Shown here: positions 12,704 through 63,389 of the stretch, in pieces
Numbering within the stretch: the stretch's first letter is position 1
How the letters are laid out: each line of letters opens with the position of its first letter
Virus record (IMG/VR): IMGVR_UViG_3300045988_175722
Location: 40,206-104,205 of that record
Strand: one strand, 5' to 3'
Length of the DNA stretch: 64,000 bases
Origin: a virus
The notes under the pieces: generated by a model
The model's input: only the letters and a program-made list of their open reading frames with translations
The model's database searches: none
What the model was told of the DNA's origin: nothing
Made by a program: the position numbers and the translations under genes

Positions 12704-12738
12704 CCCGTTAGGCGTTCCTGCGGATTTGAAATCCGCAG
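12704..12738. repeat. dispersed partial copy of the IR-A/IR-B unit
   Basis: CCCGTTAGGCGTTCC followed by CTGCGGATTTGAAATCCGCAG. Confidence 0.7.
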
Positions 12739-31208: not shown

Positions 31209-32873
31209 ATGAAAGGTCTATACGAAATTCTGACCGAGAAAAAGTGGATGATTTCGCCTGACTTTGTTCACGGAATCCGTAAGGCATTGGAGCAGAATCT
31301 GAATGCACATGCCATATACGAACGCCCTGCACCTACCTGCGGCTTCGTAACCGTGAGGGCAGCCGATGGCTCAATCTATTACCCAGAGGAATATCAGATT
31401 TCCGAGGATGGTAAGAAGGTGAGAGGTCAGTGGGCGTTGGAGGATGAGAACGAGCAGACCTTTCCGTTTGTTTCTGTGCTCACCGTCGATGGTCCTATCA
31501 CCCGAAATGGTGGCGGTTGTTCGTATGGTTCTATCGACCATCGCAACATGATGATCAATGCGGCCAATCATCCCCTCTGTCGAGGTCACATCTTCATCAT
31601 CAACACTCCTGGTGGCTCCGCTTGGGCAAAGAACGATTATGAACAGGCTATCAACTATGCCCGTTCGCAAGGTCAGCCAGTCATTGCCTTCATCGACGGT
31701 ATGTGCGCATCGGCAGGTATGTATCTCGCTTCTCTCTGTGATGAGCGTTACTACATGCACCCGAAAGATCAAATCGGTTGTATCGGTGTGATGGCATCTT
31801 TCTACACGCAGGCTGATGGCAGTAAAAACCAGTTTACCGATGAAACTTATCACGAGTTGTACGACCCTGAGAGCTTCGACAAGAACCGAGAGTTTCGCGA
31901 TATTGCCAACGATGGTGATAGCGAAAAGCTGGTAAAAGAGCTTGCCGAGTTGGGCGTGGAGTTCAGAGCCGACGTAAAGAAAGCCTGCCCTGCTGCAAAG
32001 GATGAACATCTTCATGGTAAGGTATTCGATGCCGAGGAAGTAAAGGGTATTCTAATGGATGCCCAAAGTGACTTCTTCTCTTGCGTAAAGCGTTGCTTCG
32101 ACCTTTACAATGGTGTAGCTCAGCCTATCATCAGAAAGCCATCTGATGATGATGACGAAACCAAAAGCAGTTTGAACGAGCCATCCGACCATCCGGCACA
32201 CGACCCTCAGTTGGAGCCAGACAAGGATTCTTCGGCAAAGAAAGGAAATCATCAACATACAAATAATCAAAATTTCATCAATATGGCAAATTATCCAAAA
32301 ATCAATGCCGCTTGCGGTATGCAGGATGGTCAGCAGATTGAGGTGAAGGAGGAAGGCGCATTCATGAATGCGCCATTACTCGACACCCTCGAAGCTCATC
32401 TCGCATCGCAGGAGCAGGCAGTGGCTGATGCCAAGCAGAAAGCCACCACAGCAGAGCAGAGTCTTGCCGATCTCCAGGCAAAGCACGATGCACTCGCTGA
32501 GACCATCGCCCAGAAGGACGAGGAAATCAAGAACCTGAAAGAGGCAAAGGCTAAGGCTGATGAGGACATCAAAGCCCTCAACGACGCAAAGGCAAAGGCT
32601 GATGAGGAGAAGGCAAAGACAGGTGAGGAGTTGAAGACTGCCCAGGCTTCACTTGCTACTGCCCAGCAGACCATCGCTGACAAGGACGCTCAGATTGCTG
32701 AGTTGAACGAGAACCCAGGCGAGGAGCCGGCACAGGGTGCCGCACCTCAGAACAACGGCGAGGGTGCAAAAGTAGAAACTGCAAAGACAGGCTACCCAAC
32801 TTGGAATCCAGCCGATCCAGTAGGTTCTAAGAAAGCTATCGAGGAGTACAAGAGAGAAAACGGCCTCCTCTAG
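31209..32873 (+). CDS. S49-family prohead protease fused to a scaffold-like coiled coil
   Basis: IINTPGGSAWA…IDGMCASAGMYLASLCD…IGCIGV matches the SppA/S49 serine protease pattern. The C-terminal 170 aa is an Ala/Glu/Lys-rich coiled coil. Confidence 0.75.
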   Translation: MKGLYEILTEKKWMISPDFVHGIRKALEQNLNAHAIYERPAPTCGFVTVRAADGSIYYPEEYQISEDGKKVRGQWALEDENEQTFPFVSVLTVDGPITRNGGGCSYGSIDHRNMMINAANHPLCRGHIFIINTPGGSAWAKNDYEQAINYARSQGQPVIAFIDGMCASAGMYLASLCDERYYMHPKDQIGCIGVMASFYTQADGSKNQFTDETYHELYDPESFDKNREFRDIANDGDSEKLVKELAELGVEFRADVKKACPAAKDEHLHGKVFDAEEVKGILMDAQSDFFSCVKRCFDLYNGVAQPIIRKPSDDDDETKSSLNEPSDHPAHDPQLEPDKDSSAKKGNHQHTNNQNFINMANYPKINAACGMQDGQQIEVKEEGAFMNAPLLDTLEAHLASQEQAVADAKQKATTAEQSLADLQAKHDALAETIAQKDEEIKNLKEAKAKADEDIKALNDAKAKADEEKAKTGEELKTAQASLATAQQTIADKDAQIAELNENPGEEPAQGAAPQNNGEGAKVETAKTGYPTWNPADPVGSKKAIEEYKRENGLL

Positions 32874-32924
32874 TTTTTGAAATTTAAATCACATACATAA
32901 ACAAGCAAAATTTGTATTCTAATT

Positions 32925-34214
32925 ATGGCAGCACCAAACAACTTTATTGGTATCAGCGCCCTCGAGGAGGTCGCTAACCAGGTATTCAAGAGCGTTGTGC
33001 AGGGTCCGGCTTATGCTAACCCCGAAGAGATGAAGCGTCTTGGTATCAAGATTATCAGCGGCGTCCAGTTCCAGCGCACTATCAATGTATTCATCCGTAA
33101 GGGTGGTACTACTCGCCGTAAGGATGTAAATCCTAAGTTGAACAGTGAAATCGGTTTCCTCAAGGAGCGTAAGTTGACAGCCAAGCTTGCTTGGTTCCAC
33201 GGTACCGATAACATGGATCGCTATTGTGAGACAAACCTTGGTACAGGCTCACATGGCGCTTATCCTCTTTCTACCGTAGCTATTGAGGCGGTATTGAAGA
33301 CTTATGCTGACGACCTTTACAACAACCTCTGGTGGGGTGACATTGACAGAGACGTTCCTGGCGCTTCAAATCTGGAGAAGTCTATGGCTCTCTATGATGG
33401 CTTCCTCACCGGTCTCAAGCACGATATTGAGGATGGCCTTATCAGCGAGGCTAACCACAACCTCATCCACACCGAAGCTATCACTGCACCAGCCAATGCG
33501 ACGGATAGCTCTGCATACAAGATCTTCCGTGGGGCTTACATGAAGCTGGACCCACGTATGCGCCGTCAGAATGTTTTCGCTTACATGACTCCTGAGACAG
33601 CCATCGCTATTTCTGATGCTTACGCACTCCAGTCATACGGTACTCATAAGCTCAATGTGGTAGATGGCGGTAACTACGTTATCCCAGAGCTTCCTAAGTG
33701 TACCATCGTTCCAGTTGAGGGCTTGGGTATCGGTGATCGCGTTCTCTTCTCTATCAAAGACAACCTCGTTTATGCAGTAGATTCTGAGGGTAACGACACT
33801 AAGGTTATGATTGGTAAAGGCAGTCCAGACGACCTGAGAGACATCACTATCCAGGCACAAAGTATTCAGGGCTGTTATGTGGAAAATCCATTCTCTTGGG
33901 CGTTCGCAATGACAGACGGAAACCTCGAAGCCGCAGAGTTCGTTTCAGGCGACTACACCGAGTCTAACATTACCGTTTCTCTTGCTAAGACCGTATCTAC
34001 CGCAGAGGGCGAGATCGATGGTAAGGTAAAGGTAAACGATGTTGAGTACACTAAGCCAGTGGAGACAACTCCTAACGCTATTGTTACTCTTGAGGCAGTG
34101 GATGGCACCAACTACGTCTTCGATCACTGGAACACCGGTGGCAAGGAGAAGAAGATCCAGTTCGCTGCAACAGGCATGAGCCAGGGCTTCACCGCCTTCT
34201 TCAAGAAGGGTTAA
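32925..34214 (+). CDS. major capsid protein (putative)
   Basis: 429 aa directly downstream of the protease/scaffold gene. The call is by position only. Confidence 0.55.
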   Translation: MAAPNNFIGISALEEVANQVFKSVVQGPAYANPEEMKRLGIKIISGVQFQRTINVFIRKGGTTRRKDVNPKLNSEIGFLKERKLTAKLAWFHGTDNMDRYCETNLGTGSHGAYPLSTVAIEAVLKTYADDLYNNLWWGDIDRDVPGASNLEKSMALYDGFLTGLKHDIEDGLISEANHNLIHTEAITAPANATDSSAYKIFRGAYMKLDPRMRRQNVFAYMTPETAIAISDAYALQSYGTHKLNVVDGGNYVIPELPKCTIVPVEGLGIGDRVLFSIKDNLVYAVDSEGNDTKVMIGKGSPDDLRDITIQAQSIQGCYVENPFSWAFAMTDGNLEAAEFVSGDYTESNITVSLAKTVSTAEGEIDGKVKVNDVEYTKPVETTPNAIVTLEAVDGTNYVFDHWNTGGKEKKIQFAATGMSQGFTAFFKKG

Positions 34215-39029: not shown

Positions 39030-39215
39030 TTTGCAGTTTAACCCATGTTGCGAAGCCTTCGCCTATGATTAGGGGGGGGGTATCAGCAGGTAGTAAACGT
39101 AACAGACGGAGAAAGCGCAGCCACCTTAACAACTCGCTATGAGTCGATAGGTCCTACCAACATTTTAACGCTTGCGCATTACCCTATGACAGTAGTGTTA
39201 TATGAATACGAATAA
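39026..39215 (+). CDS. TRD mini-ORF C1 (out of frame as sequenced)
   Basis: MICSLTHVAKPSPMIRGG, then a G9 tract at 39072-39080, then YQQVVNVTDGESAATLTTRYESIGPTNILTLAHYPMTVVLYEYE. It needs 8 G. As sequenced it stops at 39142. Confidence 0.45.
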
Positions 39216-39353
39216 TACGATAGACAAAATAGGCAACATTTACTTTAATGAATGGAAGCCCGGTTTTGATGGTAATATCTGTGGCGTGAAAGGTATATAC
39301 CCTACCATTACTCTATCCAACAATACGGGGGGGTACTGTTAGAGTATGCTTAA
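39202..39353 (+). CDS. TRD mini-ORF C2 (tail out of frame as sequenced)
   Basis: …IGNIYFNEWKPGFDGNICGVKGIYPTITLSNNTGG, then a G7 tract at 39327-39333, then VLLEYA. It needs 8 G. As sequenced it ends YC at 39342. Confidence 0.5.
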
Positions 39354-39513
39354 AAAGAACGCACGTCTGGAGCGTATGTATCAGCGCGGTTTCCGTCCAC
39401 ATCACGCCATGTGGATCGATACCTATAATAAGCAATATGGCAAAGATATTATCTATACTGTTTTAGCTGGTATCAGTAGTAGAAACCATTATTACGTAGC
39501 AGTAGAACTATGA
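39346..39513 (+). CDS. TRD mini-ORF C3 (intact, no tract)
   Basis: MLKKNARLERMYQRGFRPHHAMWIDTYNKQYGKDIIYTVLAGISSRNHYYVAVEL. The start lies inside the C2 tail and the stop overlaps the C4 ATG. Confidence 0.5.
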   Translation: MLKKNARLERMYQRGFRPHHAMWIDTYNKQYGKDIIYTVLAGISSRNHYYVAVEL

Positions 39514-39658
39514 ATAGTAATCGCCCGATCATCCTCGGCTCTTATAGCCCATCCCAAAACGGCATTATCGTTCACCCTAAAGGTATCGCCCTATGCCTTT
39601 GTGGGGGGGCAAAGGGCATGATGTAGATAAACCGAAAATATTATTAGAGTATGAATAA
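39510..39658 (+). CDS. TRD mini-ORF C4 (tail out of frame as sequenced)
   Basis: MNSNRPIILGSYSPSQNGIIVHPKGIALCLCGG, then a G7 tract at 39603-39609, then GKGHDVDKPKILLEYE. It needs 8 G. Confidence 0.5.
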
Positions 39659-39802
39659 GGTTATTCCTTTCGTAAAACGATTTAAGGAGCTATGCCCACG
39701 ATTAGATGGTTACTCTACAGCCTTGTCATCAAGGTACGATGGATGGGGGGGCTGTACGACAACCACGGGCAGCATACTATGTTATTGTTAGTATATGATT
39801 AA
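39651..39802 (+). CDS. TRD mini-ORF C5 (tail out of frame as sequenced)
   Basis: MNKVIPFVKRFKELCPRLDGYSTALSSRYDGWGG, then a G7 tract at 39745-39751, then LYDNHGQHTMLLLVYD. It needs 8 G. Confidence 0.45.
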
Positions 39803-39939
39803 ATTGATAACAATCAATACCCCCCCCCATAATCTGTGGTGCTATCACTGCTCATTATTTTAAGGATGGGGTATCGAATATCCTTCCAAATACAAACTCG
39901 CAGATAAAGGCTGCGGCAATATTAGCAGAGTATGAATAA
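39795..39939 (+). CDS. TRD mini-ORF C6 (out of frame as sequenced; C tract instead of G tract)
   Basis: MIKLITINTPP, then a C9 tract at 39820-39828, then IICGAITAHYFKDGVSNILPNTNSQIKAAAILAEYE. It needs 8 C. As sequenced it stops at 39833. Confidence 0.4.
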
Positions 39940-40033
39940 GGTTATAATAGATAAAGGTAGCATTCCTCCTTCTGAAGAGAAAGAGGATGATTCTAATGAT
40001 ATGCCGCCATTCGTATTGATAGAATATGATTAA
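39932..40033 (+). CDS. mini-ORF C7 (short, acidic, cassette-type ends)
   Basis: MNKVIIDKGSIPPSEEKEDDSNDMPPFVLIEYD. It shares the 19-nt junction AGAGTATGAATAAGGTTAT with the C4/C5 boundary. Confidence 0.4.
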   Translation: MNKVIIDKGSIPPSEEKEDDSNDMPPFVLIEYD

Positions 40034-40202
40034 GATATTAGCCATTCACGAGGCAAGAACAGAGCACGCCAAGGAAGTACGCAAGCAGACTGGTACCAAC
40101 GATTATCGGGATAAAGCCGTCTTCTTCCGTGATAGTCCTTTGATGCAGTGCATCGGTACTTTCTCCACAAAGGATAATCTTCTTGCCTTCAGATATGAAT
40201 AA
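40026..40202 (+). CDS. TRD mini-ORF C8 (intact)
   Basis: MIKILAIHEARTEHAKEVRKQTGTNDYRDKAVFFRDSPLMQCIGTFSTKDNLLAFRYE. Confidence 0.5.
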   Translation: MIKILAIHEARTEHAKEVRKQTGTNDYRDKAVFFRDSPLMQCIGTFSTKDNLLAFRYE

Positions 40203-40211
40203 AGAAAAGTT

Positions 40212-40376
40212 ATGAACGAAATACATCCGATAGTAGTAGGCTTGCTGAATACGCCTCCCTTTGACAAGCGCTTCGCCCAGATAAGGCGAGTGTTCGCTAT
40301 CCAAGGTCTAGCGCCTACTTGCGATACTTGTGGGGGGGGCGGTACTCAGCCCAAGATACTGGTGGAGTATGATTAG
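40212..40376 (+). CDS. TRD mini-ORF C9 (intact, G8 in frame)
   Basis: MNEIHPIVVGLLNTPPFDKRFAQIRRVFAIQGLAPTCDTCGGGGTQPKILVEYD. The G8 tract is at 40332-40339. Confidence 0.5.
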   Translation: MNEIHPIVVGLLNTPPFDKRFAQIRRVFAIQGLAPTCDTCGGGGTQPKILVEYD

Positions 40377-40551
40377 GCAAGCCATCATTACCCACTATCG
40401 AACCGAAGAAGCGAAGGCATATCGCAAGATACACGGCGACAGAGGCGGTTGCCGTTATCAGGATAAGTATCATCGCCCAAGTCCCTACCCCTGGAGTAAC
40501 TGCATTTCCACCGTAACAAAAGATAATCTTTTATGGCAACAATACGAATAA
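40369..40551 (+). CDS. TRD mini-ORF C10 (intact)
   Basis: MIRQAIITHYRTEEAKAYRKIHGDRGGCRYQDKYHRPSPYPWSNCISTVTKDNLLWQQYE. This is the frame of track ORF 40330..40551. Confidence 0.5.
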   Translation: MIRQAIITHYRTEEAKAYRKIHGDRGGCRYQDKYHRPSPYPWSNCISTVTKDNLLWQQYE

Positions 40552-40691
40552 GAACCTGCGCAAGCAGAGGCAGAGCCGATGGTGATTGGTACTACAACCC
40601 TCACTCCCAAAGGTTAGAAATTGGGGGAAGCATCAGTAATGCCATCTCCTCCATCGCTAAGGATTTTATGATTATCATTGAACACCGCTAG
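40533..40691 (+). CDS. TRD mini-ORF C11 (intact)
   Basis: MATIRIRTCASRGRADGDWYYNPHSQRLEIGGSISNAISSIAKDFMIIIEHR. It ends inside repeat IR-A. Confidence 0.45.
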   Translation: MATIRIRTCASRGRADGDWYYNPHSQRLEIGGSISNAISSIAKDFMIIIEHR

Positions 40692-40878
40692 GCGCTCGGC
40701 GGATTTGAAATCCGCCGTTAAAAAATGTCCTAACCTTTTTAGGCTCTGCGGATTTGAAATCCGCAGCAAGCAAGATTGTATCAAAGAATAGGGGGATTAC
40801 AGATCCCCCAGTTTAATAGGTCGAACCTTTTTTGACGGTGGATTTCAAATCCGCCGGAACGCCTAACGGAAGACTTTG
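40685..40878. repeat. composite palindrome-cluster repeat IR-A
   Basis: Contains GGCGGATTTGAAATCCGCC (40698), CTGCGGATTTGAAATCCGCAG (40746), GGGGGATTACAGATCCCCC (40791) and GGTGGATTTCAAATCCGCC (40837). Its reverse complement aligns along its length with 50501-50695. Confidence 0.8.
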
Positions 40879-40911
40879 TCCCCATCAAAACCACAAAAAG
40901 CCCTAACTTTA
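40875..40911 (+). promoter_or_regulatory. bipartite promoter P7
   Basis: TTTGTCCCC, then a 25-nt gap, then TAACTTTA. Upstream of the gene at 41003. Confidence 0.35.
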
Positions 40912-41002
40912 CACTCAGAAACAAGAGAAAAGCGGGCGTGCGTATATCGCCGCCCTTCTCTCTTCCATCACATTCAGGATAACATAAAAAAGAAACGCAA
41001 AA

Positions 41003-45450: not shown

Positions 45451-45487
45451 CACCGTTCCCAGCGATTCCATCGCTGGGTTCTTTTTT
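45451..45487 (+). terminator. gene-boundary hairpin element copy 12, terminator-type variant
   Basis: The stem is extended to CCCAGCGAT/ATCGCTGGG and followed by TTCTTTTTT. Confidence 0.7.
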
Positions 45488-45521
45488 GTCCCCCCTAATA
45501 AGAAAAAATCTCCTATCTTTG
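45485..45521 (+). promoter_or_regulatory. bipartite promoter P5
   Basis: TTTGTCCCCCC, then a 25-nt gap after the TTTG, then TATCTTTG. It is fused to the T-run of hairpin element copy 12. Confidence 0.45.
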
Positions 45522-45545: not shown

Positions 45546-46223
45546 ATGGCAAAAAATAAAGAAACCCCCGAACAGCGCACCCAGCGGTTCAAATCCCTCT
45601 GCATCGGCATCCTTGCCCAGAGCGGCAACTGCCAGGAATCGCAGTCAGCTTTCCATCGGGCAGAATCCATCCCCGATATGTGCGAGGCGTGGCGCAAGTA
45701 CTGGCACGGTTTAATCACTGAGGTGCCGCAGCAGGTAATAGATGCTTTCAAGGCGGTTTATCCTGAATTTAAGGCAGATATAAACCGAGGCGGTATCTTT
45801 TACAACGAAGACTCGCCCACCGGAAACGTTCTTGTGGGCGATACCGATGAAATTATCCATCTCTACTCCTCCCGAAAGATATACATCCTCGGTAAGGCGC
45901 ACGTGGTGCTCCATAATGCCGCCACTGCCATCGCCATGAACCCCCACTGCAAGGTAGAACTCTACGATGGCAGCAAGGCAACGCTGAAGGCAGGTTACGG
46001 CATAGCCCACAACTATGCCCACCTGGTAACTTGCGGCGAAGCCGAGTGTTACGACCAGAGTGTGGTTTTCATTACCGATGGCACCCTTCACGACTACGGG
46101 CACAAGAAAATCAACGCCTTCGGTAATGCCCTGGTGGACACCTTTACCCATCGTCTGATTGACACCTACGATAGGGCGAGAATTGAAGTAAGGAAGCAGC
46201 CATCAGAACCATTCATCGTATGA
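45546..46223 (+). CDS. hypothetical protein
   Basis: 225-aa ORF. Confidence 0.55.
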   Translation: MAKNKETPEQRTQRFKSLCIGILAQSGNCQESQSAFHRAESIPDMCEAWRKYWHGLITEVPQQVIDAFKAVYPEFKADINRGGIFYNEDSPTGNVLVGDTDEIIHLYSSRKIYILGKAHVVLHNAATAIAMNPHCKVELYDGSKATLKAGYGIAHNYAHLVTCGEAECYDQSVVFITDGTLHDYGHKKINAFGNALVDTFTHRLIDTYDRARIEVRKQPSEPFIV

Positions 46224-46266: not shown

Positions 46267-49161
46267 ATGAACTCACATCTCGCAATATTAATCAACGACA
46301 AGCCGGTAGCCCTGCCCGATGATTTCTCCATCGATATAGAGGATCAGAACCCCGTGTTCAACGATACGGAGATGTTCTCCTATCCTTTCTCTATTCCCCT
46401 GGATGGCAATCGCTGGCTTGTCAAGAACATAGAAGACGTGCATGCTGCCGTGAGAGCCGTGAACATGGAGCATTTGCCTACCCGAATCCATGCCGACGGA
46501 CTTCCCTTCCGCAGCGGTACCCTGGTGATGCAGGACGATGAGGAGATAACCAACTCGCTTTCGATGAATATCGATGCCAGCACGCAGAGTTTCAGCGACC
46601 TGATCAGCAACCTGCAATGCCGGGATATTCCGGTCAAAGACCAGCTTATCATCGGCGAGAAGATAGGCAATGTAAGGGTGGATATTTGGAGCAATCCGAC
46701 CATCCAGGTGCATCTTCACAGCGACGGCAAGAAGGGCGGCAAGAATGCCACCGCTACCGTGAAAGCCACTCCTCTCAGGGCAAGTAAAGTGCTTGAACCG
46801 CAGGCACTCGGTTTCTCCTATCCTGGCTCTTGCAGGGAATACACATATAATACAAGTGACCACCATATCGGCGATGCCTACAACAAAGGCACGAAGTCAT
46901 ACGCTGCCAGCAAGGTGAACGTCAATATTCCGCAGGAAATTTCGCAGGGAAGCTATATCAATACCTCGGCCGCCTATGGCGAAACCGATAACGCAGGCAG
47001 GGCTACCGCATATTGCAATGCCCGCATTTGCTACAGACATCATGCGCTGGAAGATGATGGCAGTACGTCGAGCGACACCATCAAGATGGATAAGTGTACA
47101 TGGATAGATGAGGATCTTTATCCTTACTGGGTATTGGATGCCAAGCGTCCGCAATCGGGTATCTGCTTCTACGTGCTCTATTTCCTGGATTGCCTCTTCG
47201 CTCATCTGGGCGTAAGTTTCGACAAAAGAGCTTTGCTAAAGATAGAAGACTTGAAGCATCTCTGTTTCTTCACCACTGTTTGCGGCTACGATACCATCGA
47301 ACACCCACATCACGGCGATTATTACGAAGCGAAGGAAATTCAGGATGCCAAGGATATTGTCAACGACAAAAAGTACAAAAAAGGCAGCAATCCAGAGGCG
47401 GAGATTATCGCCGAAAAATCGGTAGGAGAAATCAAGACGGGTTTTTTCTCCTCTCAGGAACACATCAATTCCTGGCTCGAAAGCCGCGGTTGCGGCGGTC
47501 AGATTGAGATAACCAAAGCCGAGGATAAGGAGGTGCAGGAACTCGACCTTGCCGTAACGGAAAATGGCGTGACGACTACCCGTCATATTCAGGTGGGAGA
47601 GGTGGTTACTTTTCCTCCTGGCAAGGGAATGAAGGTAACGGGTATTACCATTGAATCGAATATTGAGAAATTCGAGGTACAGGGCAATGTGCTCTATATG
47701 GTAGCCAATAGCGACAACTTCCCCGACGAGAGTGTAAGTACCGTTATTTCTTCGCTCGAGAATGCGTTTGGTATCAAGTTCTCTTACGATTACGAACAGA
47801 AGAAAGTAACCGCTTATCTCACTCGTGATATTCTCCGCAGAAGCGGTGATACGCCAAGAAATTTCCACGCCAACATCCACTCGATGGTGCCCATGAGCGA
47901 GAAGATTACGGGTGTGCGTATGCGATATTCTGCCGAAGCCGACAAAAAAGAGCAGCAGGGCTACACCAAGCGCAACGCCCAGGGAGATTATCTTGATTCC
48001 GGCTACGACACCGATTATAACTATACGGAATACCCTCTGCCCGATGGCGACTCGAGCAAATCGGGTAGAACCATTACCAACATGAAATACGTAGAATTTT
48101 TCCACAACATCAGTAACCCTGGTGATAGAAATTGCTACATCGACCGCGCCACTGGCAATGCTTATCGCGTAAAGGTAAACAAGGAAGCAAGGACTTCCAA
48201 TGAGCTGAAACCTGTATTGTTCGAGGTGGGTCAGTTCAAGGGTGTTGAGTATGGGGATTGCCGTGAAGAGAATGAGGATTTCATCCACGACATCAGTATA
48301 GATTTCACGCCAGTACCCTTCAATGACGTAAACTACTTCAAGGAGGTGGAAGCCGCTTATGGTATTCACTCCGCAAAGGGCGATAACGGCGAAGATTATC
48401 TTGCCAATATCAGGGGGGTGCAGCAGCCTATTCTCTGCGCTTATGTAGATGAGGATATGGAGCACGAGTTTGTAGAGCAGGAAATCAACCAGGTTATCTC
48501 TTCTGCCTTCTGCAATTACTATATGAAGCAGAAACTGAAGCTCGTGGAAAGCTATGACCCGTCGGGTACCGATGATGGCAATTCTCCTTTGCAGGATAAA
48601 TCCCGTTGGGGCTTTGCGGTAGCCTTGATGCGAGGCGGTGGCAGCGATGCCACCCTGCAACCTTACGATTACAACTACGACCATTTTGGTACATCCAAAT
48701 GGCGCACCAATGCCGGTGAGTATGCCCTAGCCTGCGATTCACTGGACATGATGGGCAATGTGTTTGATTATAACGGTGTGCAGGAAGGTGTAGGCACTGG
48801 AGAGCGTTTCTCGCTAAAAATACGAGCTTTCAAGGAGCCATCGTGGATGAATGATCCGAAATACAAGGATATAGTGGTCTGCAATGAAGATGAGATAGAT
48901 GAGAACGGGGAGGTAGTAACTAAAATCCGCTCCCGTGGTCTCTTTGATACCTTCATTCTCCCCTACGCCTATTTCCTCTTGAATAGGAAGAAATTCAAAA
49001 TAAGATGCACCACCACGGTAGCCCAGGTTGCTGATATACCAAACCACTGGCAGGAATGGTGGAACATAGGCGGCATGAAGTGCCTCATTGACAAGGTAAA
49101 CACCACCATCGATGCCAAGACGGGCATGGGCGAAGTAGAGCTAACGGTATATGCCCTCTAA
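46267..49161 (+). CDS. large virion protein (baseplate or tail-associated, unassigned)
   Basis: 964-aa ORF. No catalytic motif recognised. Confidence 0.6.
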   Translation: MNSHLAILINDKPVALPDDFSIDIEDQNPVFNDTEMFSYPFSIPLDGNRWLVKNIEDVHAAVRAVNMEHLPTRIHADGLPFRSGTLVMQDDEEITNSLSMNIDASTQSFSDLISNLQCRDIPVKDQLIIGEKIGNVRVDIWSNPTIQVHLHSDGKKGGKNATATVKATPLRASKVLEPQALGFSYPGSCREYTYNTSDHHIGDAYNKGTKSYAASKVNVNIPQEISQGSYINTSAAYGETDNAGRATAYCNARICYRHHALEDDGSTSSDTIKMDKCTWIDEDLYPYWVLDAKRPQSGICFYVLYFLDCLFAHLGVSFDKRALLKIEDLKHLCFFTTVCGYDTIEHPHHGDYYEAKEIQDAKDIVNDKKYKKGSNPEAEIIAEKSVGEIKTGFFSSQEHINSWLESRGCGGQIEITKAEDKEVQELDLAVTENGVTTTRHIQVGEVVTFPPGKGMKVTGITIESNIEKFEVQGNVLYMVANSDNFPDESVSTVISSLENAFGIKFSYDYEQKKVTAYLTRDILRRSGDTPRNFHANIHSMVPMSEKITGVRMRYSAEADKKEQQGYTKRNAQGDYLDSGYDTDYNYTEYPLPDGDSSKSGRTITNMKYVEFFHNISNPGDRNCYIDRATGNAYRVKVNKEARTSNELKPVLFEVGQFKGVEYGDCREENEDFIHDISIDFTPVPFNDVNYFKEVEAAYGIHSAKGDNGEDYLANIRGVQQPILCAYVDEDMEHEFVEQEINQVISSAFCNYYMKQKLKLVESYDPSGTDDGNSPLQDKSRWGFAVALMRGGGSDATLQPYDYNYDHFGTSKWRTNAGEYALACDSLDMMGNVFDYNGVQEGVGTGERFSLKIRAFKEPSWMNDPKYKDIVVCNEDEIDENGEVVTKIRSRGLFDTFILPYAYFLLNRKKFKIRCTTTVAQVADIPNHWQEWWNIGGMKCLIDKVNTTIDAKTGMGEVELTVYAL

Positions 49162-49171
49162 CTCCCTCTCG

Positions 49172-49202
49172 CCCCCGTTCCCAGCGATTCCACCGCTGGT
49201 CC
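49172..49202 (+). repeat. gene-boundary hairpin element copy 13
   Basis: The right arm is ACCGCTGG. It lies 11 nt after the stop at 49161. Confidence 0.8.
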
Positions 49203-49232: not shown

Positions 49233-50441
49233 ATGGATAGAAAAATAATAATCACCGGAACCGGCATCCTTTCCGCTATGGGCAGGAATACAAAGGAAGT
49301 AGCCATGAATCTTTATCATGGCAAATGCGGCTTGCATCATGATGAATGCCGTGATAACTACATCTCCGATTTATGCGGCGACGTGTGTAGCTACGAAAAA
49401 GATTACCATGATATTCTTACTCATGCACAATGCGAATGTATGCCTGTACACGGTTTCGACGTGCTCGATGCAGTATTCGAGGCGCTGAAGGAAGCAAAGG
49501 TTAGTAAAGAGTTCTTGGAAAACCATAACGTTTCCATCGTCGTAAGCAACGATTCTGAATGCTACGAGAGTAGGTGTGTAGTGAATCATGTAGATGAGGA
49601 CAACTTCAATAATTCCTTGCCGGTAAGTACCCTCTTCCGCTCACTTAATTCCACCATCAGCATGAACCTGGCTACCATCCTCGGTATTCATGGCTTATCA
49701 CTTACTGTAAGCGCAGCTTGTGCAGGAGGTGGCCACGCCATTGGTTTGGCGAAGATGCTTCTCGATAGCAAACAGACCGAAATGGTAATTGTGGTTGGCG
49801 CGCAGGAATACGAGTCTCAATATTGCATGGAAGCTTTCGATGCCCTGGGTGTCTTCTCACCCGATAAAGTGCAGCCATTTGGTAAAGGCAGAAATGGACT
49901 CGCACCATCGGGCGGTGCAGCCTGCATCATCCTCGAACCATCGGATAGCCTTCGCCTGAAAGAAGAGAAAGTGCATTCCTTCGCTTCTCTTTCCGGCTAT
50001 AGCTTTTCAACAACCGGAAAAGCTATCACTACTCCTGATGCCTATCAGGAAGAAGTATCTATGGTCAATGCCATCGAGAACGCGGGTCTGGATGAAGGCA
50101 TGATAGATGTGGTTCTCGCCCACGCCACGGGTACCCCAATGGGTGATGCAGCGGAAGCGGAAGCCATCGGAAAGATTTTCTCTATCTGTCCGAATGTGGT
50201 AGCCACGAAGGGCATGACAGGCCACGAGTGCTGGATGGCAGGCGTATCGCAAGCCGTGCAAGCCGTAATCATGTTCACCTATGGCCGTCTGTTTCATGCA
50301 GCCACTACCGAGGAGAATGCCTTCCCGGAATTGAACCTGGTGATGCGCCCTAAGTATTACTCACCTCATCATATCCTCTGCAATGCCTTCGGTTTTGGTG
50401 GTACCAACGCATCCTTTGTCGTCTCAAAGGTTCCTCGTTAG
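49233..50441 (+). CDS. beta-ketoacyl-ACP synthase (KAS I/II type)
   Basis: Active-site Cys in SAACAGGGHAIG, His in HATGTPMGD, Lys/His in ATKGMTGHECW, and C-terminal NAFGFGGTNASFVV. Confidence 0.85.
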   Translation: MDRKIIITGTGILSAMGRNTKEVAMNLYHGKCGLHHDECRDNYISDLCGDVCSYEKDYHDILTHAQCECMPVHGFDVLDAVFEALKEAKVSKEFLENHNVSIVVSNDSECYESRCVVNHVDEDNFNNSLPVSTLFRSLNSTISMNLATILGIHGLSLTVSAACAGGGHAIGLAKMLLDSKQTEMVIVVGAQEYESQYCMEAFDALGVFSPDKVQPFGKGRNGLAPSGGAACIILEPSDSLRLKEEKVHSFASLSGYSFSTTGKAITTPDAYQEEVSMVNAIENAGLDEGMIDVVLAHATGTPMGDAAEAEAIGKIFSICPNVVATKGMTGHECWMAGVSQAVQAVIMFTYGRLFHAATTEENAFPELNLVMRPKYYSPHHILCNAFGFGGTNASFVVSKVPR

Positions 50442-50450
50442 TCTTTCCCG

Positions 50451-50525
50451 CAAAGTCTTCCGTTAGGCGTTCCAACAAAGTCTTCCGTTAGGCGTTCCAA
50501 CAAAGTCTTCCGTTAGGCGTTCCGG
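50451..50525 (+). repeat. 25-bp tandem repeat x3
   Basis: CAAAGTCTTCCGTTAGGCGTTCCAA repeated three times. The third copy runs into IR-B. Confidence 0.9.
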
Positions 50526-50695
50526 CGGATTTGAAATCCGCCGTCAAAAAAGGTCCCAACCTATAAAACCGGGGGATTTGCAATCCCCCAATCATTATCA
50601 GCACCCTTGCTTGCTGCGGATTTCAAATCCGCAGGGCATAAAAAGGTTGGGTCATTTCTTAACGGCGGATTTCAAATCCGCCGAGCGCCTAGCGG
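50501..50695. repeat. composite palindrome-cluster repeat IR-B (inverted copy of IR-A)
   Basis: Palindromes at 50524, 50571 (GGGGGATTTGCAATCCCCC), 50614 and 50664. It aligns with the reverse complement of 40685-40878. Confidence 0.8.
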
Positions 50696-50751
50696 GATAA
50701 AGCGCCTAGCAGGATAAAGCGCCTAGCGGGATCGAGCACCTAGCGGAAGAT
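50684..50751 (+). repeat. 17-bp tandem repeat x4
   Basis: AGCGCCTAGCGGGATAA, AGCGCCTAGCAGGATAA, AGCGCCTAGCGGGATCG, AGCACCTAGCGGAAGAT. Confidence 0.85.
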
Positions 50752-50804
50752 AAGGATTTGCAATCCGCACAATCAAAATTCAAACAATATTTCAGCAAAA
50801 AGCA

Positions 50805-51056
50805 ATGAAGCAAGAAGAAATAACCCCTCGCATCATCGGCATCGTGAATAGTTTAAAAACCTCGTGGGTCAACCACGAGGTTACGCCTTCTTCTAATCTC
50901 CGAGACGAAATCCAGCTTGAATCCATCGATATGCTCGATATGATTCAGCAGGTGGAAATGATGTTCCATATCAGAATCACACCCGAGGAAGCCGCGAAAT
51001 GTAAGCTCGTCTCCGATGTAATCAACCTGGTTTCTATTAAACAAAAGCAAAAGTAA
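50805..51056 (+). CDS. acyl carrier protein
   Basis: 83 aa. LESIDMLDMIQQVEMMFHIRITPEE fits the ACP DSL-helix II pattern, with Ser in ESID as the candidate phosphopantetheine site. Confidence 0.7.
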   Translation: MKQEEITPRIIGIVNSLKTSWVNHEVTPSSNLRDEIQLESIDMLDMIQQVEMMFHIRITPEEAAKCKLVSDVINLVSIKQKQK

Positions 51057-51057
51057 T

Positions 51058-52125
51058 ATGGCAAAGAAAATCACCCTTACATCGGGTTCCATCCTCGCCG
51101 GAAACCCGATAACGCTCTCTATTCAGCCCGAGGTACTGAAATCTCCCACCTTTCATCGTGTCATTGTGGAAGTAACCTTTTCCAATCTTCAGGATGATTA
51201 CGAAACCGTGGCACTCTCGGTTCCCGTGACCCAGGAAAAAGAAGGTGCAGAGGTGTCTCTCGATATCTCTTCCGCCATCCGCATTCCGCTGGATAGCTAC
51301 ACCTACTCGCCGCTACCTGCCACCTATCCCAAGGTAAGCTGGTACGTAAGAGCCTACGATGAGTACATGGATAACAACGGCAGACTGCATACGGGCGCAG
51401 ACACGGGTGCGGTTTATTTTCCGCAAGCACCGCTAAACGGCATCAACACCAACCTGCGCTGCATAGCGGGTGCCTTCAACGATATGGAACGATTAAAAGC
51501 TGGTGTAACGAAAGCCGTGACGAATCTTTCCGCCAAGCCTACATCAAGTCCGGAACCATTCGTAGTAGGCGAATCCTTCATCTACCCAGTTCCTTATGCA
51601 GAGCCGCAGACGTTAGCCGCTAGTGCTACCCTGGCCGCGCCCTCGTCTTCTGGAACCATCATCTTTCAAGAAGGCATGCAGACCATCAATGACCACCACC
51701 CTATCTACGCCCTACCCGATACGGAAGCAGAAAACCGCACCACCTTCCGCTTCATCAACCGTTTCGGTTGCCTGGAAAGCGTAAATGTGCCGAAAAGCTA
51801 CAGCCAGAAGATGAGTGCGGACAGCGCATCCTATACCATCGCCAAGCAGGAAACCTTCAATGAGTTTTCTCACTTCGTCATTCACAAGCAGAATGACCGG
51901 GAATCCTGGCTTTTCCAAACCGACCCGTTAGATAAAGAGTGGCTGCAATGGTACTATCACGAGTTTCTGATGGCAAAGCATGTATGGCTGAAAATCTCCG
52001 ATACCTGGGTTCCATGCACCATTGCCCTGGAGGATGAAATCACCATCAAGGACGATACCGCGCATACGTATCACGCCGTAAGCTTCACGGCAACGCTGGG
52101 TATCAACGGAAGCCCACTAGTGTAG
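51058..52125 (+). CDS. hypothetical virion protein
   Basis: 355-aa ORF that starts 1 nt after the ACP stop. Confidence 0.55.
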   Translation: MAKKITLTSGSILAGNPITLSIQPEVLKSPTFHRVIVEVTFSNLQDDYETVALSVPVTQEKEGAEVSLDISSAIRIPLDSYTYSPLPATYPKVSWYVRAYDEYMDNNGRLHTGADTGAVYFPQAPLNGINTNLRCIAGAFNDMERLKAGVTKAVTNLSAKPTSSPEPFVVGESFIYPVPYAEPQTLAASATLAAPSSSGTIIFQEGMQTINDHHPIYALPDTEAENRTTFRFINRFGCLESVNVPKSYSQKMSADSASYTIAKQETFNEFSHFVIHKQNDRESWLFQTDPLDKEWLQWYYHEFLMAKHVWLKISDTWVPCTIALEDEITIKDDTAHTYHAVSFTATLGINGSPLV

Positions 52126-52141: not shown

Positions 52142-52181
52142 CCCCCGTTCCCAGCGATTCCATCGCTGGGTTCTTTTTTTT
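52142..52181 (+). terminator. gene-boundary hairpin element copy 14, terminator-type variant
   Basis: Extended stem CCCAGCGAT/ATCGCTGGG followed by TTCTTTTTTTT. Confidence 0.7.
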
Positions 52182-52215
52182 GTCCCACCCATTTCCTCCT
52201 TTTCTCGTACCTTTG
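52179..52215 (+). promoter_or_regulatory. bipartite promoter P6
   Basis: TTTGTCCC, then a 25-nt gap, then TACCTTTG. It is fused to the T-run of hairpin element copy 14. Confidence 0.45.
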
Positions 52216-61372: not shown

Positions 61373-61496
61373 CAGAAAATAAATTGTTTAACATAAATTT
61401 AAAAAGAAAAGCACAATTACTTAGACTAGCTTATCCGAGCGCCTTTGGGCGCAAGTGATAGCCAAGTCTCTGCAAATTGTCAGCAAGAGTTTTGAT

Positions 61497-61844
61497 ATGG
61501 CAGAAGCAAGACAGCTCCCGATTTATCGGGCTACGTATGAGCTTGTGAGCAAGTTGACCTCCTGGGTAGAAAACTTCCCTAGGATACATCGCTTTACACT
61601 TGGCGACAGGGTGGTATGCAACGCCATCGACCTGTTCAATTACATCCAGCTCGCCAATATGTATGCAGACCAGAGAAAACAGTACCTCATGGGGTTTACA
61701 ACGAAACTGGAACTCGTAAAAACGCTGTTACGCCTATGCTTTGAGAGAAAACTTTTCTCGACAAAACAATCGGCTGACATTTGTAGAATGATGACCAATA
61801 TCGGTAAACAGGCTACCGGCTGGAGGAACTCCAAGAAGGTTTAG
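61497..61844 (+). CDS. avd: Avd-like four-helix-bundle accessory protein
   Basis: MAEARQLPIYRATYELVSKL…FPRIHRFTLGDRV… matches the four-helix-bundle (23S rRNA IVS protein) family pattern. It lies between the target and the TR. The track ORF starts at 61455. Confidence 0.8.
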   Translation: MAEARQLPIYRATYELVSKLTSWVENFPRIHRFTLGDRVVCNAIDLFNYIQLANMYADQRKQYLMGFTTKLELVKTLLRLCFERKLFSTKQSADICRMMTNIGKQATGWRNSKKV

Positions 61845-61992
61845 TACCCTTGGTTTGAAAAGCAAGAGTATGGTGTTGCCAAGGCGCACCATAGAGACGA
61901 TCCTTCTAGAATAATGGTCCCACCACTGTCAAGTCGCATTCTTGTTTGTAAAAGATTGCGAACCAGTTAAGATGTATTTAGAGTGGGAATAA

Positions 61993-62120
61993 CAGCGCAC
62001 CAACTACTGGAGTTGTTGTGAGAACAGTGCAGACAACGCTCGCAATCTGAATTTCTCCAATGGCAATCGCGGCAACAACGGTAAGGGTAATACGAATCGT
62101 GTGCGACCTGTTACGGCATT
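61993..62120 (+). repeat. DGR template repeat (TR)
   Basis: Rich in AAC/AAT codons (…ACC AAC TAC…AAC AGT GCA GAC AAC…AAT CTG AAT…). It sits 12 nt upstream of the RT ORF. Confidence 0.9.
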
Positions 62121-62132
62121 AGTTTAAGGAAA

Positions 62133-63389
62133 GTGGGAAAGAGTACGGTTATGGTACAAGCAGAAGAGATTTTGGCGGCACATTGCGATTGCATTGATGG
62201 TAAGGCATCGTCACCCGATGCCATTGCGTTTGACGTGGCTCTCTTTGAGAACATCATCAGCCCTACCGACAGCATCAATGCACGTGACTACCAACCTCTG
62301 CCTTCCATCACATTTGTCGTTCCCAAGCCTGTTTATCGTGAGGTGTTTGCTGCCAACTATCGTGATAGAGTGATTCATCACTACATAGCCCTGCGCCTTG
62401 AACCCCTTTACGAAGAGGTATTTAGCGACCGCACCTTTAATTGCAGACGCGGCAAAGGCCAGCTTTACGGCATCAAGCGCCTGGAGGCAGACATCCGAGA
62501 AGCTAGTGATAACTATAAGTACCCCTGCTGGTGCCTACGTGGCGACATGCAGGGCTTTTTCATGAGCATCCCTCGCCAGCGCCTCGCTGACAAGGTGGAT
62601 GCTTTTATCGTCAAGAACTACAAGGGCGACGACATAGAGGATTTGCGCTATGTGAGCCGCATTACCATTATGAACGATCCTACCCGTAATTGCATCCGCC
62701 GTTCGCCCGAGAGCGAGTTTGCGAAAGTTCCGGCAGGCAAAACCCTGAGTACTACCAAGCAGGGCTGCGGCTTGCCTATCGGCAACCTGACCAGTCAGCA
62801 TGATGCCAACTTCTGGCTTAATGATTTCGACTGGATGTTTGAAATTTTCCTCCATATTTATTACCACGGCAGATACGTGGATGATTTCTATGCCGTGCAT
62901 CGCAGCAAGATGGTTCTCGTGAATGCCATCCCCTATATTCGCCATTATCTGGGCGACTATGGCATCAAACTGCACCCAAGAAAAATCAGTCTTCAGTTAT
63001 GCAGCCGTGGTGTAAAGTTTACAGGCATGGTGGTGAAAAACGGCAGGATTTATGCCAGCAACCGCACCGTGGCCAACTTCCGTGACTTAATCTACAAGAT
63101 GAATCTTTTGCCGCAAGACTACACGCTGGATCAGATAAACGCCTACCTCTGTTCCATCAACAGTTACCTGGGCTACATGCGCCATTGCAGCAGTTACGCC
63201 ATCCGCAAAAAGGTGATGCTGATGATGGACCGCCGCTTTTACCGGCATATCTATATCAAGGGCAGATACGAGAGCGTAGCCTTGAAAAACAAGTATAAAC
63301 GCCTGCGTGAAGCAAGAAAGATACTAGCCCATGCCAGCAGCAAGAAGTTTGATTATCTGATGGATAATTACGATAAGCTCTGTGCGTAA
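62133..63389 (+). CDS. DGR reverse transcriptase
   Basis: GLPIGNLTSQ (DGR-type [ILV]GxxxSQ motif) and GRYVDDFYAV (YxDD). The first ATG is at 62151. Confidence 0.9.
   Translation: MGKSTVMVQAEEILAAHCDCIDGKASSPDAIAFDVALFENIISPTDSINARDYQPLPSITFVVPKPVYREVFAANYRDRVIHHYIALRLEPLYEEVFSDRTFNCRRGKGQLYGIKRLEADIREASDNYKYPCWCLRGDMQGFFMSIPRQRLADKVDAFIVKNYKGDDIEDLRYVSRITIMNDPTRNCIRRSPESEFAKVPAGKTLSTTKQGCGLPIGNLTSQHDANFWLNDFDWMFEIFLHIYYHGRYVDDFYAVHRSKMVLVNAIPYIRHYLGDYGIKLHPRKISLQLCSRGVKFTGMVVKNGRIYASNRTVANFRDLIYKMNLLPQDYTLDQINAYLCSINSYLGYMRHCSSYAIRKKVMLMMDRRFYRHIYIKGRYESVALKNKYKRLREARKILAHASSKKFDYLMDNYDKLCA

Follow-up and report, generated by a model that had tools for sequence, protein, structure and literature searches.

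A diverged ketosynthase and a dedicated acyl carrier protein as old cargo of a clade of ~100-kb uncultured phages, probably aimed at host lipid chemistry

Why should a phage carry a fatty-acid-type condensing enzyme together with its own carrier protein among its late genes? This question is raised by a stretch of 64,000 nucleotides (positions 40,206 to 104,205 of the IMG/VR virus record IMGVR_UViG_3300045988_175722; hereafter the window), in which a gene for a beta-ketoacyl-acyl carrier protein synthase (ketosynthase, KS) is followed by a gene for an acyl carrier protein (ACP). Comparison with related contigs shows a single acquisition of this pair by an ancestor of a clade of ~100-kb uncultured phages, as an old cargo insertion between two genes named p964 and p355, and its maintenance under purifying selection since the insertion. 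With regard to function, we favour, at about even confidence, a host-directed chain-elongation module of the NodE/NodF type, which would depend on AcpS, FabD and the reducing enzymes of the host. Judging from the gene content, phages of this clade probably re-route host lipid chemistry. The two genes are:

49233..50441, + strand: beta-ketoacyl-ACP synthase (KS), FabB-like, 402 aa, with the triad Cys163-His297-His331 and the motif GHECWM
50805..51056, + strand: dedicated acyl carrier protein (ACP), 83 aa, with the serine in LESID and an isoelectric point (pI) of 5.6

The 402-aa open reading frame (ORF) at 49233-50441, to which a preliminary description of this DNA had attributed an apparently intact Cys-His-His context, contains both KS domains, each above the gathering score in Pfam (PF00109, 1.7e-23; PF02801, 9.3e-18). 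In a MAFFT alignment with E. coli FabB, the residues C163, H297, K326, H331 and F388 of the phage KS correspond to C163, H298, K328, H333 and F392, and a residue-by-residue comparison with HMMER places the KS motifs on the catalytic positions of solved beta-ketoacyl-ACP synthase I (KAS I) structures as well. The gate residue Phe388 lies within NAFGFGGTN, the positions Thr299/Thr301 and Asp305/Glu308 also align with the KAS I structures and E. coli FabB, and the catalytic residues are invariant across the phage KS family. A misassigned active site had been named beforehand as an observation that would speak against a functional enzyme; we found instead that the Cys, both His, the Lys and the gate Phe are correctly placed. 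By its domains and residues, the protein is of the elongating beta-ketoacyl-ACP synthase type (thiolase superfamily, Cys-His-His), with a predicted condensing activity.

An assignment as a housekeeping FabB/FabF orthologue was rejected, the scores being far under the equivalog cut-offs of NCBIfam: the best NCBIfam model is FabB with 160.8 bits vs a cut-off of 630, the fabF model reaches 154.6 bits vs 493.75, and several other KS models in NCBIfam score nearly as FabB does. Identity amounts to 26% with E. coli FabB and 23% with FabF, and the KS has no PHROG family match. A KS-alpha/KS-beta pair of a type II polyketide synthase, with the KS-beta acting as chain-length factor (CLF), was also rejected, given a single KS-like sequence in the window, hence no second gene with Gln for the catalytic Cys, and no KS match in Pfam elsewhere in the genome, as read in relatives. 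No second or relic copy of either gene was found near the primase gene.

The smaller ORF at 50805-51056, described before as an 83-aa ACP with an ESID serine site, passes the cut-off of PF00550 in Pfam (24.4 bits vs 20.8) and matches the PHROG family phrog_5934, 'acyl carrier protein' (4.7e-8). Its LESID aligns with the DSLD of E. coli AcpP, and the serine is invariant in 44/44 distinct family sequences. The best NCBIfam ACP model yields 42.8 bits vs a cut-off of 66, and the score of a housekeeping AcpP equivalog is not reached.

A scan of IMG/VR for relatives of the locus returned 59 loci. In 57 of these, on contigs of 52-111 kb and with a KS identity of 58-87%, the gene order p413-p363-p225-p964-KS-ACP-p355-p718 is conserved; L058 and L059 have a bacterial-type KS at the contig ends. 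All KS and ACP copies of the family are intact ORFs, with a median pairwise dN/dS of 0.12 for the KS and 0.18 for the ACP, which is similar to the values of the flanking genes (0.07 for p964 and 0.15 for p355). The GC content of the pair is near that of its neighbours, with a slightly lower GC content at third codon positions. Co-occurrence of the pair in related phages, which the preliminary description had suggested checking, is thus seen as synteny in 57 related contigs; a recent or decayed capture of host genes, which had likewise been named as speaking against the proposal, is not what the 57 related contigs and the signature of purifying selection indicate. As separate candidates, both a recent host capture (pair at the same position in these contigs, KS 58-87% identical) and a decaying passenger (intact ORFs, dN/dS of 0.12 and 0.18) were rejected.

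More distant phages were reached by a profile search with p964. In four of them (L282, L290, L299 and L302; p964 36-47% identical), p355 follows ~15 nt after p964, and neither KS nor ACP is present. From the adjacency of p964 and p355 in these distant relatives, it follows that the pair entered a junction that already existed, at the base of the clade of KS-bearing phages. The position inside a late structural operon had been regarded as unusual; the pair does lie in the late operon, and its place there is explained as a cargo insertion into a junction of ~15 nt.

The same comparison bears on the trivial explanation that host DNA was misassembled or mis-binned into viral contigs, or that the pair is a decaying passenger. 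Many KS matches in public 'phage' records do look like host genes, e.g. fabB in prophage-border records, and the bacterial-type KS at the contig ends of L058 and L059 may be of this kind. However, the same flanks occur in 57 independent contigs of 52-111 kb, the ORFs are intact with dN/dS values of 0.12 (KS) and 0.18 (ACP), phage genes lie on both sides of the pair, and no copy more than 40% identical exists in 185,579 cellular species representatives, which leaves an artefact barely credible.

Further pairs of this kind are found outside the clade. The KS proteins nearest to the family come from phage-like contigs. Each is encoded next to an ACP, and at least three other contexts are represented, replication modules among them. 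In the cases of P0129 and P0176, the order is ACP then KS, upstream of a BT4734-type primase gene, which is followed by ThyX in the P0176 contig. The phage carrying P0129 is a distant relative that shares a replication module with this phage (1226-aa protein 35% and clamp 29% identical). P0132 belongs to a trio of ketoreductase (KR), KS and ACP on a 55-kb contig, P0208 is a KS followed by an ACP on a contig of 159 kb, where T4-like replication genes and genes for a clamp loader, a terminase and a gyrase are present, and P0123 again has the order ACP then KS. The contigs that carry P0129, P0176, P0132 and P0208 are L304/L305, L394, L307 and L395, respectively.

The phylogeny of the KS was constructed as a neighbour-joining tree. 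In this tree, the family groups with P0123, P0129, P0158, P0176 and P0209 at a bootstrap of 79, and addition of P0132, P0208 and P0187 to this clade gives a bootstrap of 71. KS proteins of the phage clade have ACAGGGHA and GVSQ in common, and the ESID variant of the serine motif is common to several of the associated ACPs. Since related pairs occur in such varied contexts, the pair moves between phage lineages without a fixed genome position, and this variable position argues for a role that is independent of tail genes.

What, then, are the closest relatives of the phage KS in cells? When 1.84 billion representative proteins were searched exhaustively, the closest KS with a single domain from beyond the family proved to be 35-44% identical, and none of the cellular KS in the 185,579 species-representative genomes exceeds 40%. 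At least 600 Bacteroidota genomes, including Flavobacterium, Chryseobacterium, Sphingobacterium and Cytophagales, encode a 37-40% identical KS sharing TGHECWM, which is thus not a family-specific motif; NDS and F-x3-NST-x-SMNL are further motifs common to phage and bacterial KS. In Chryseobacterium, the KS gene is surrounded by genes for an AMP-ligase, a halogenase, an aromatic ammonia-lyase, a KR, an ACP, a lipid-A-type acyltransferase and an amine oxidase. Similarly, an annotated Persicobacter plasmid contains a KR-KS-ACP-acyltransferase block inside a full flexirubin-type cluster, which also includes a separate KS/CLF pair, a thioesterase and LolA, and a further relative, P0156, lies beside ApeP-like, ApeI-like, MMPL, KR, LolA and thioesterase genes. 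The bacterial KS gene occupies the position of ApeR, a homodimeric FabB-like KS that is encoded next to the reductase ApeQ in aryl-polyene clusters and speeds up short-polyene formation in vitro, in a reconstitution that uses the organism's own FabD (PMC8358021). In gut Bacteroides xylanisolvens, an arylpolyene cluster is reported to be syntenic with the flexirubin cluster (PMC12940132).

Altogether, the KS proteins of Bacteroidota flexirubin/aryl-polyene clusters appear to be the closest cellular relatives of the phage KS, a link that was absent from the preliminary description. The phylogenetic placement proposed there could be carried out in part: the phage clade itself is recovered with bootstraps of 71-100, and its junction with the flexirubin KS is taken up below.

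This relationship could mean that the pair acts as an ApeR-like, fast elongator of short-chain polyenes in a flexirubin/aryl-polyene-type pathway of the host, so that more antioxidant polyene lipid would reach the outer membrane and shield the infected anaerobe from oxidative stress until lysis. We consider this possible but rather unlikely. The signatures NDS, FxxxNSTxSMNL and GHECWM, common to the phage KS and its closest cellular relatives, would fit such a role, as would the increased aryl-polyene throughput caused by ApeR in vitro (PMC8358021), the presence of an arylpolyene cluster in a gut species, B. xylanisolvens (PMC12940132), and the frequency of oxidative-stress enzymes on gut Bacteroidetes phages (PMC8008677). 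However, KS identity is only 37-40%, the placement beside the pigment KS in the tree is unsupported, the aryl-stacking position (equivalent to FabB Met138) is occupied by Leu instead of an aromatic residue, and the phage carries no ammonia-lyase, ligase or dehydratase pair.

A key question is which enzymes the pair could work with. We searched ORFs of at least 80-90 aa against Pfam (E ≤1e-4), with relatives representing the unread part of the genome. Neither the 49 ORFs of the window nor the other ~40 kb, scanned in L065, L108, L189 and L226, yielded a phosphopantetheinyl transferase, an acyltransferase/transacylase, a ketoreductase, a dehydratase or an enoyl reductase in Pfam; these scans gave only replication, partition, methylation, lysis and retroelement families. 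The earlier statement that no partner enzymes are visible in the window therefore stands and extends, by way of the relatives, to the rest of the genome. Of the two explanations offered in the preliminary description, the first, an auxiliary pair that relies on host partners, fits these data, with no partners in the genome and with related pairs lying outside structural modules.

KS-plus-ACP pairs such as NodE/NodF work with the housekeeping enzymes of fatty-acid synthesis. By analogy, the host-directed elongation module that we favour might operate as follows. A FabB-like, decarboxylating KS of the homodimer type and its own ACP would form a two-gene elongation module that, as predicted from the residues, is catalytically competent. 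The block p225-p964-KS-ACP-p355 would be transcribed as one operon, and the phage ACP would be converted to its holo form by host AcpS and loaded with malonate by host FabD. An acyl chain on Cys163 of the KS could then be condensed with malonyl-ACP, with His297 and His331 serving in decarboxylation, and the beta-keto product would be processed by a reductase and a dehydratase of the host, taken either from type II fatty-acid synthesis or from a flexirubin/aryl-polyene-type pathway. In this way, host acyl flux would be diverted to a chain length or type specified by the phage, as NodE/NodF do in rhizobia, and the function would be aimed at the infected cell rather than at virion building.

Several observations weigh against this model. 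At FabB positions 62, 63 and 66, which we take, as a lead only, to be contacts to AcpP, the KS of the window has H, A and E and hence no basic residues; because these docking positions are changed, productive traffic with host FabD, FabG and FabZ is not guaranteed. The ACP is less acidic than usual, with a pI of 5.6 and a family range of 4.4-7.9, compared to ~4.1 for AcpP and the flexirubin-cluster ACPs. It is only 18-27% identical to every ACP compared, and its origin can therefore not be placed. In the KS tree, the node joining the flexirubin KS to the phage clade has a bootstrap of 17-18. Finally, the tight spacing between ACP and p355, described below, could hint at a functional link with p355 instead.

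The unusual charge of the ACP, together with the altered docking patch, hints at a private KS-ACP interface. Such a private pair, which alone cannot complete an elongation cycle, might also serve as a sink for host takeover, draining malonyl-ACP or titrating host fatty-acid synthesis enzymes and thereby shutting down membrane synthesis late in infection. We regard this as improbable: the strictly conserved catalytic machinery, i.e. the decarboxylation histidines and the gate Phe, would be superfluous for a mere decoy, and the KR added in one relative lineage (P0132) suggests a product that is processed further.

The genomic surroundings of the pair include the following features:

45458..45487, + strand: intrinsic terminator (hairpin CCCAGCGATTCCATCGCTGGG and T-run) that closes the upstream unit after p363
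45514..45521, + strand: Bacteroidota-type -7 promoter box TATCTTTG, putative operon start, 32 nt before p225
45546..46223, + strand: p225, first gene of the operon, without family match, syntenic in relatives
46267..49161, + strand: p964, conserved large protein, old upstream neighbour of the insertion (dN/dS 0.07)
49180..49200, + strand: degenerate hairpin copy without T-run, probably no terminator
50442..50804, + strand: palindromic repeat insertion between KS and ACP, lineage-specific, 363 nt
51058..52125, + strand: p355, all-beta, older gene flanking the insertion downstream; its start lies 1 nt past the ACP stop
52150..52181, + strand: intrinsic terminator (same hairpin as the copy at 45458, and T-run) that closes the operon
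52208..52215, + strand: -7 box TACCTTTG of the next unit (p718 onward), 76 nt before p718

The hairpin CCCAGCGATTCCATCGCTGG is present in 13 copies on the + strand, located after genes. Just two of the copies, those at 45458 and 52150, have a T-run; a TAnnTTTG box comes after each (at 45514 and 52208, respectively). This box shows a four-fold intergenic enrichment (14 intergenic vs 14 coding matches in 12.1 vs 51.9 kb) and lies 30-110 nt upstream of gene starts; an equivalent box, TAtcTTTG, is present in relatives. The copy at 49180, between p964 and KS, has neither a T-run nor a promoter box after it. As this hairpin is probably not a terminator, transcription would read through into the KS gene, and we infer that p225-p964-KS-ACP-p355 form one transcription unit between two terminator-promoter cassettes. 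The hairpins belong to a ~30-nt element, GCCCCCGTTCCCAGCGATTCCATCGCTGG, which lies mostly just 3' of genes on the + strand (sites 9817, 25011, 26294, 28490 and 29571, and further 34233, 35286, 36276, 42891, 45458, 49180, 52150 and 55696); attenuators or RNA ends are possibilities for the remaining copies.

The preliminary description had placed the pair between a virion protein and baseplate and tail genes. Weak tail and tail-fibre matches in PHROG were indeed found further downstream. The immediate neighbours p964 and p355, however, match no family: neither has a hit in Pfam, PHROG, PADLOC or the sequence families of the Protein Data Bank (PDB), including profile searches against the PDB. The labels 'virion protein' and 'baseplate' are putative, though plausible, for these neighbours. 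An AlphaFold2 model of p964, based on an alignment of 16 sequences, has a predicted local distance difference test score (pLDDT) of 30.5. The model of p355 (pLDDT 66) is all-beta and has no significant fold match in the PDB (best E 3e-3); it resembles many uncharacterised phage proteins in BFVD, some of them labelled as BACON-domain proteins, from phages of Flavobacteriia. A role in defence or anti-defence was rejected as there are no PADLOC matches.

The second explanation of the preliminary description was that the pair serves to acylate a component of the virion. In such a scheme, a KS-extended acyl chain would be passed from the ACP to p355, p964 or another tail protein and would aid membrane penetration. 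In its favour, the pair shares one putative transcription unit with p964 and p355, and the distance from the ACP stop to the p355 start is 1-2 nt in about two-thirds of the relatives and 1 nt in this genome. IacP provides a precedent for an ACP dedicated to a secretion operon (PMC5279801). However, beyond this co-transcription we found no support for it: no acyltransferase was found in the genome, p964 and p355 were adjacent before the insertion and relatives function without the pair, related pairs lie in the replication modules of other phages, IacP-type acylation needs no ketosynthase, and the 363-nt insertion that separates KS from ACP here is tolerated. Taken together, this makes lipidation of the virion or the injection apparatus very improbable, and we hold it equally doubtful that the dedicated acyl chain ends, via a host acyltransferase, on a component of the particle or at the site of assembly or injection, for which p355 and p964 would be the likeliest candidates.

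The repeat cluster noted earlier between KS and ACP was recovered as a spacer of 363 nt with repeats and hairpins at 50442-50804. It comprises three families of direct repeats and several hairpins and folds as a single long imperfect palindrome (folding free energy -166 kcal/mol, z-score -12.3), without a match to an Rfam family at threshold. In relatives, the gap between KS and ACP ranges from -4 to 83 nt, with 2 nt being the commonest, and the cluster is therefore specific to the lineage of this genome. Being absent from relatives, the spacer looks like a palindromic insertion resembling a miniature inverted-repeat transposable element. Its core of ~160 nt, based on GGCGGATTTSAAATCCGCC hairpins, duplicates an element found at 40697-40856, and single hairpins of the GGCGGATTTSAAATCCGCC type are located at 12722 and 63907.

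The region 39030-41002 (2 kb) contains no ORF of at least 90 aa and has five dispersed copies of about TAYTGTTAGAGTATGMTTAA, which could be origin iterons or operator sites. Between the syntenic relatives L001-L057, the intergenic spacers around KS, ACP and p355 are hypervariable and consist of arrays of short repeats, with AGGTAAAAAG, TGTTGAA and GCCCTGTAAGGGC hairpins as tandem units. This variability suggests fast-evolving repeat arrays at gene junctions.

The window as a whole has the gene content of a phage, with a 2091-aa tape-measure-like protein, an S49 head-maturation protease, a GH108 endolysin and a holin (PHROG, Pfam) as well as DNA methyltransferases, ThyX and a BT4734-type primase; the pair is thus flanked by phage genes within a phage genome. 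A search for tRNA genes in the window gave none. The identical KS protein is recorded on a contig of 104,205 bp, and near relatives are on contigs as long as about 107 kb. The host is inferred to be a Bacteroidota bacterium because of the BT4734-type primase, the enriched TAnnTTTG box and the Bacteroidota relatives of the KS. INPHARED contained no relative at either the nucleotide or the protein level when queried with the region, p964 and the putative capsid protein, and its best match to the KS is 35.6% identical.

Further observations concern the genome beyond the pair. The gene of the 2091-aa tape-measure-like protein (17997-24272) precedes the primase, ThyX, protease and putative capsid genes (31209-34214), a module order that is unusual for a tailed phage. 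Just after the tail-fibre-like genes, there is a diversity-generating retroelement at 61455-63389, composed of bAvd (61455-61844) and a reverse transcriptase (62133-63389). The latter has no close homologue in the related contigs (≤47% identity), one relative having a different reverse transcriptase-like ORF (L226:568-2085). The other ~40 kb of the genome, as represented by L065, L108 and L189, encodes a ParA-like ATPase, a DNA polymerase III beta clamp, an Rv2179c-like exonuclease, an N6 methyltransferase and the 1226-aa protein, whose homologue in L304 has a weak match to DUF5906. The ParA-like gene may point to a plasmid-like lifestyle.

In our view, what is new here is a diverged condensing enzyme with a private carrier protein that became fixed in a common clade of ~100-kb uncultured phages. 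The recurrence of such pairs in at least three other phage-like contexts points to a putative general phage strategy of steering the acyl-chain synthesis of Bacteroidota. With just two small genes, the system is tractable and could reveal a new phage-made lipid or polyene. As the KS has no PHROG match, the result also improves annotation. Should the lipidation reading be true, it would mean that a phage provides a tail or baseplate protein with a lipid anchor of its own making. To our knowledge, reported phage lipid genes are mostly single desaturases, isoprenoid enzymes or copies of fab operons in predicted prophages. A full-text literature search returned no description of this phage KS-ACP pair. 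Isoprenoid and oxidative-stress enzymes figure in a survey of gut Bacteroidetes phages, which has no mention of ketoacyl synthases or ACPs (PMC8008677).

Comparison with known systems helps to place the pair. With KAS I (FabB) and KAS II (FabF), the phage KS shares the two-domain fold family and the catalytic residues, and its best matches among solved structures are KAS I enzymes; unlike these, it is phage-encoded, comes with a private ACP and has changed basic positions for ACP docking. The flexirubin/aryl-polyene KS show 37-40% identity over the full length and the same Cys-His-His-Lys set, and their clusters likewise have an ACP of ~80 aa directly downstream, in the order KS then ACP. However, the ammonia-lyase, ligase, KR, dehydratase, acyltransferase, LolA and MMPL genes of the flexirubin cluster occur neither in the window nor in the rest of the phage genome, the phage family has ACAGGGHA and GVSQ where the flexirubin-cluster KS have ACASGSHA and GASE, and the ACPs of the two are only ~20% identical.

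The IacP protein is used to acylate the translocon of the Salmonella type III secretion system. Like the phage ACP, it is a private ACP in an operon for a membrane-penetrating apparatus, in its case the secretion operon of Salmonella pathogenicity island 1 (PMC5279801). In contrast to the phage pair, IacP does its work with no ketosynthase, and both the target and the transferase have been identified; we found no counterpart of these for the phage pair. As a functional analogy, NodE/NodF serve as the working model for the favoured elongation module, being a minimal KS plus ACP with no reductase, dehydratase or transacylase of their own, although they adjoin NodA, an acyltransferase that uses their product, whereas the phage lacks such a gene. 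A case on phage-like elements is that of the fabG-acpP-fabF trios in predicted Rhodobacteraceae prophages, which were called auxiliary metabolic genes for metabolic reprogramming (PMC8224337). Both systems combine a fatty-acid-type condensing enzyme with an ACP. The Rhodobacteraceae trios copy the fab order of the host within predicted prophages, whereas the phage pair is diverged, with at most 40% identity to any cellular KS, is part of a late operon in ~100-kb genomes that are not integrated, and has a KS from a phage-associated clade.

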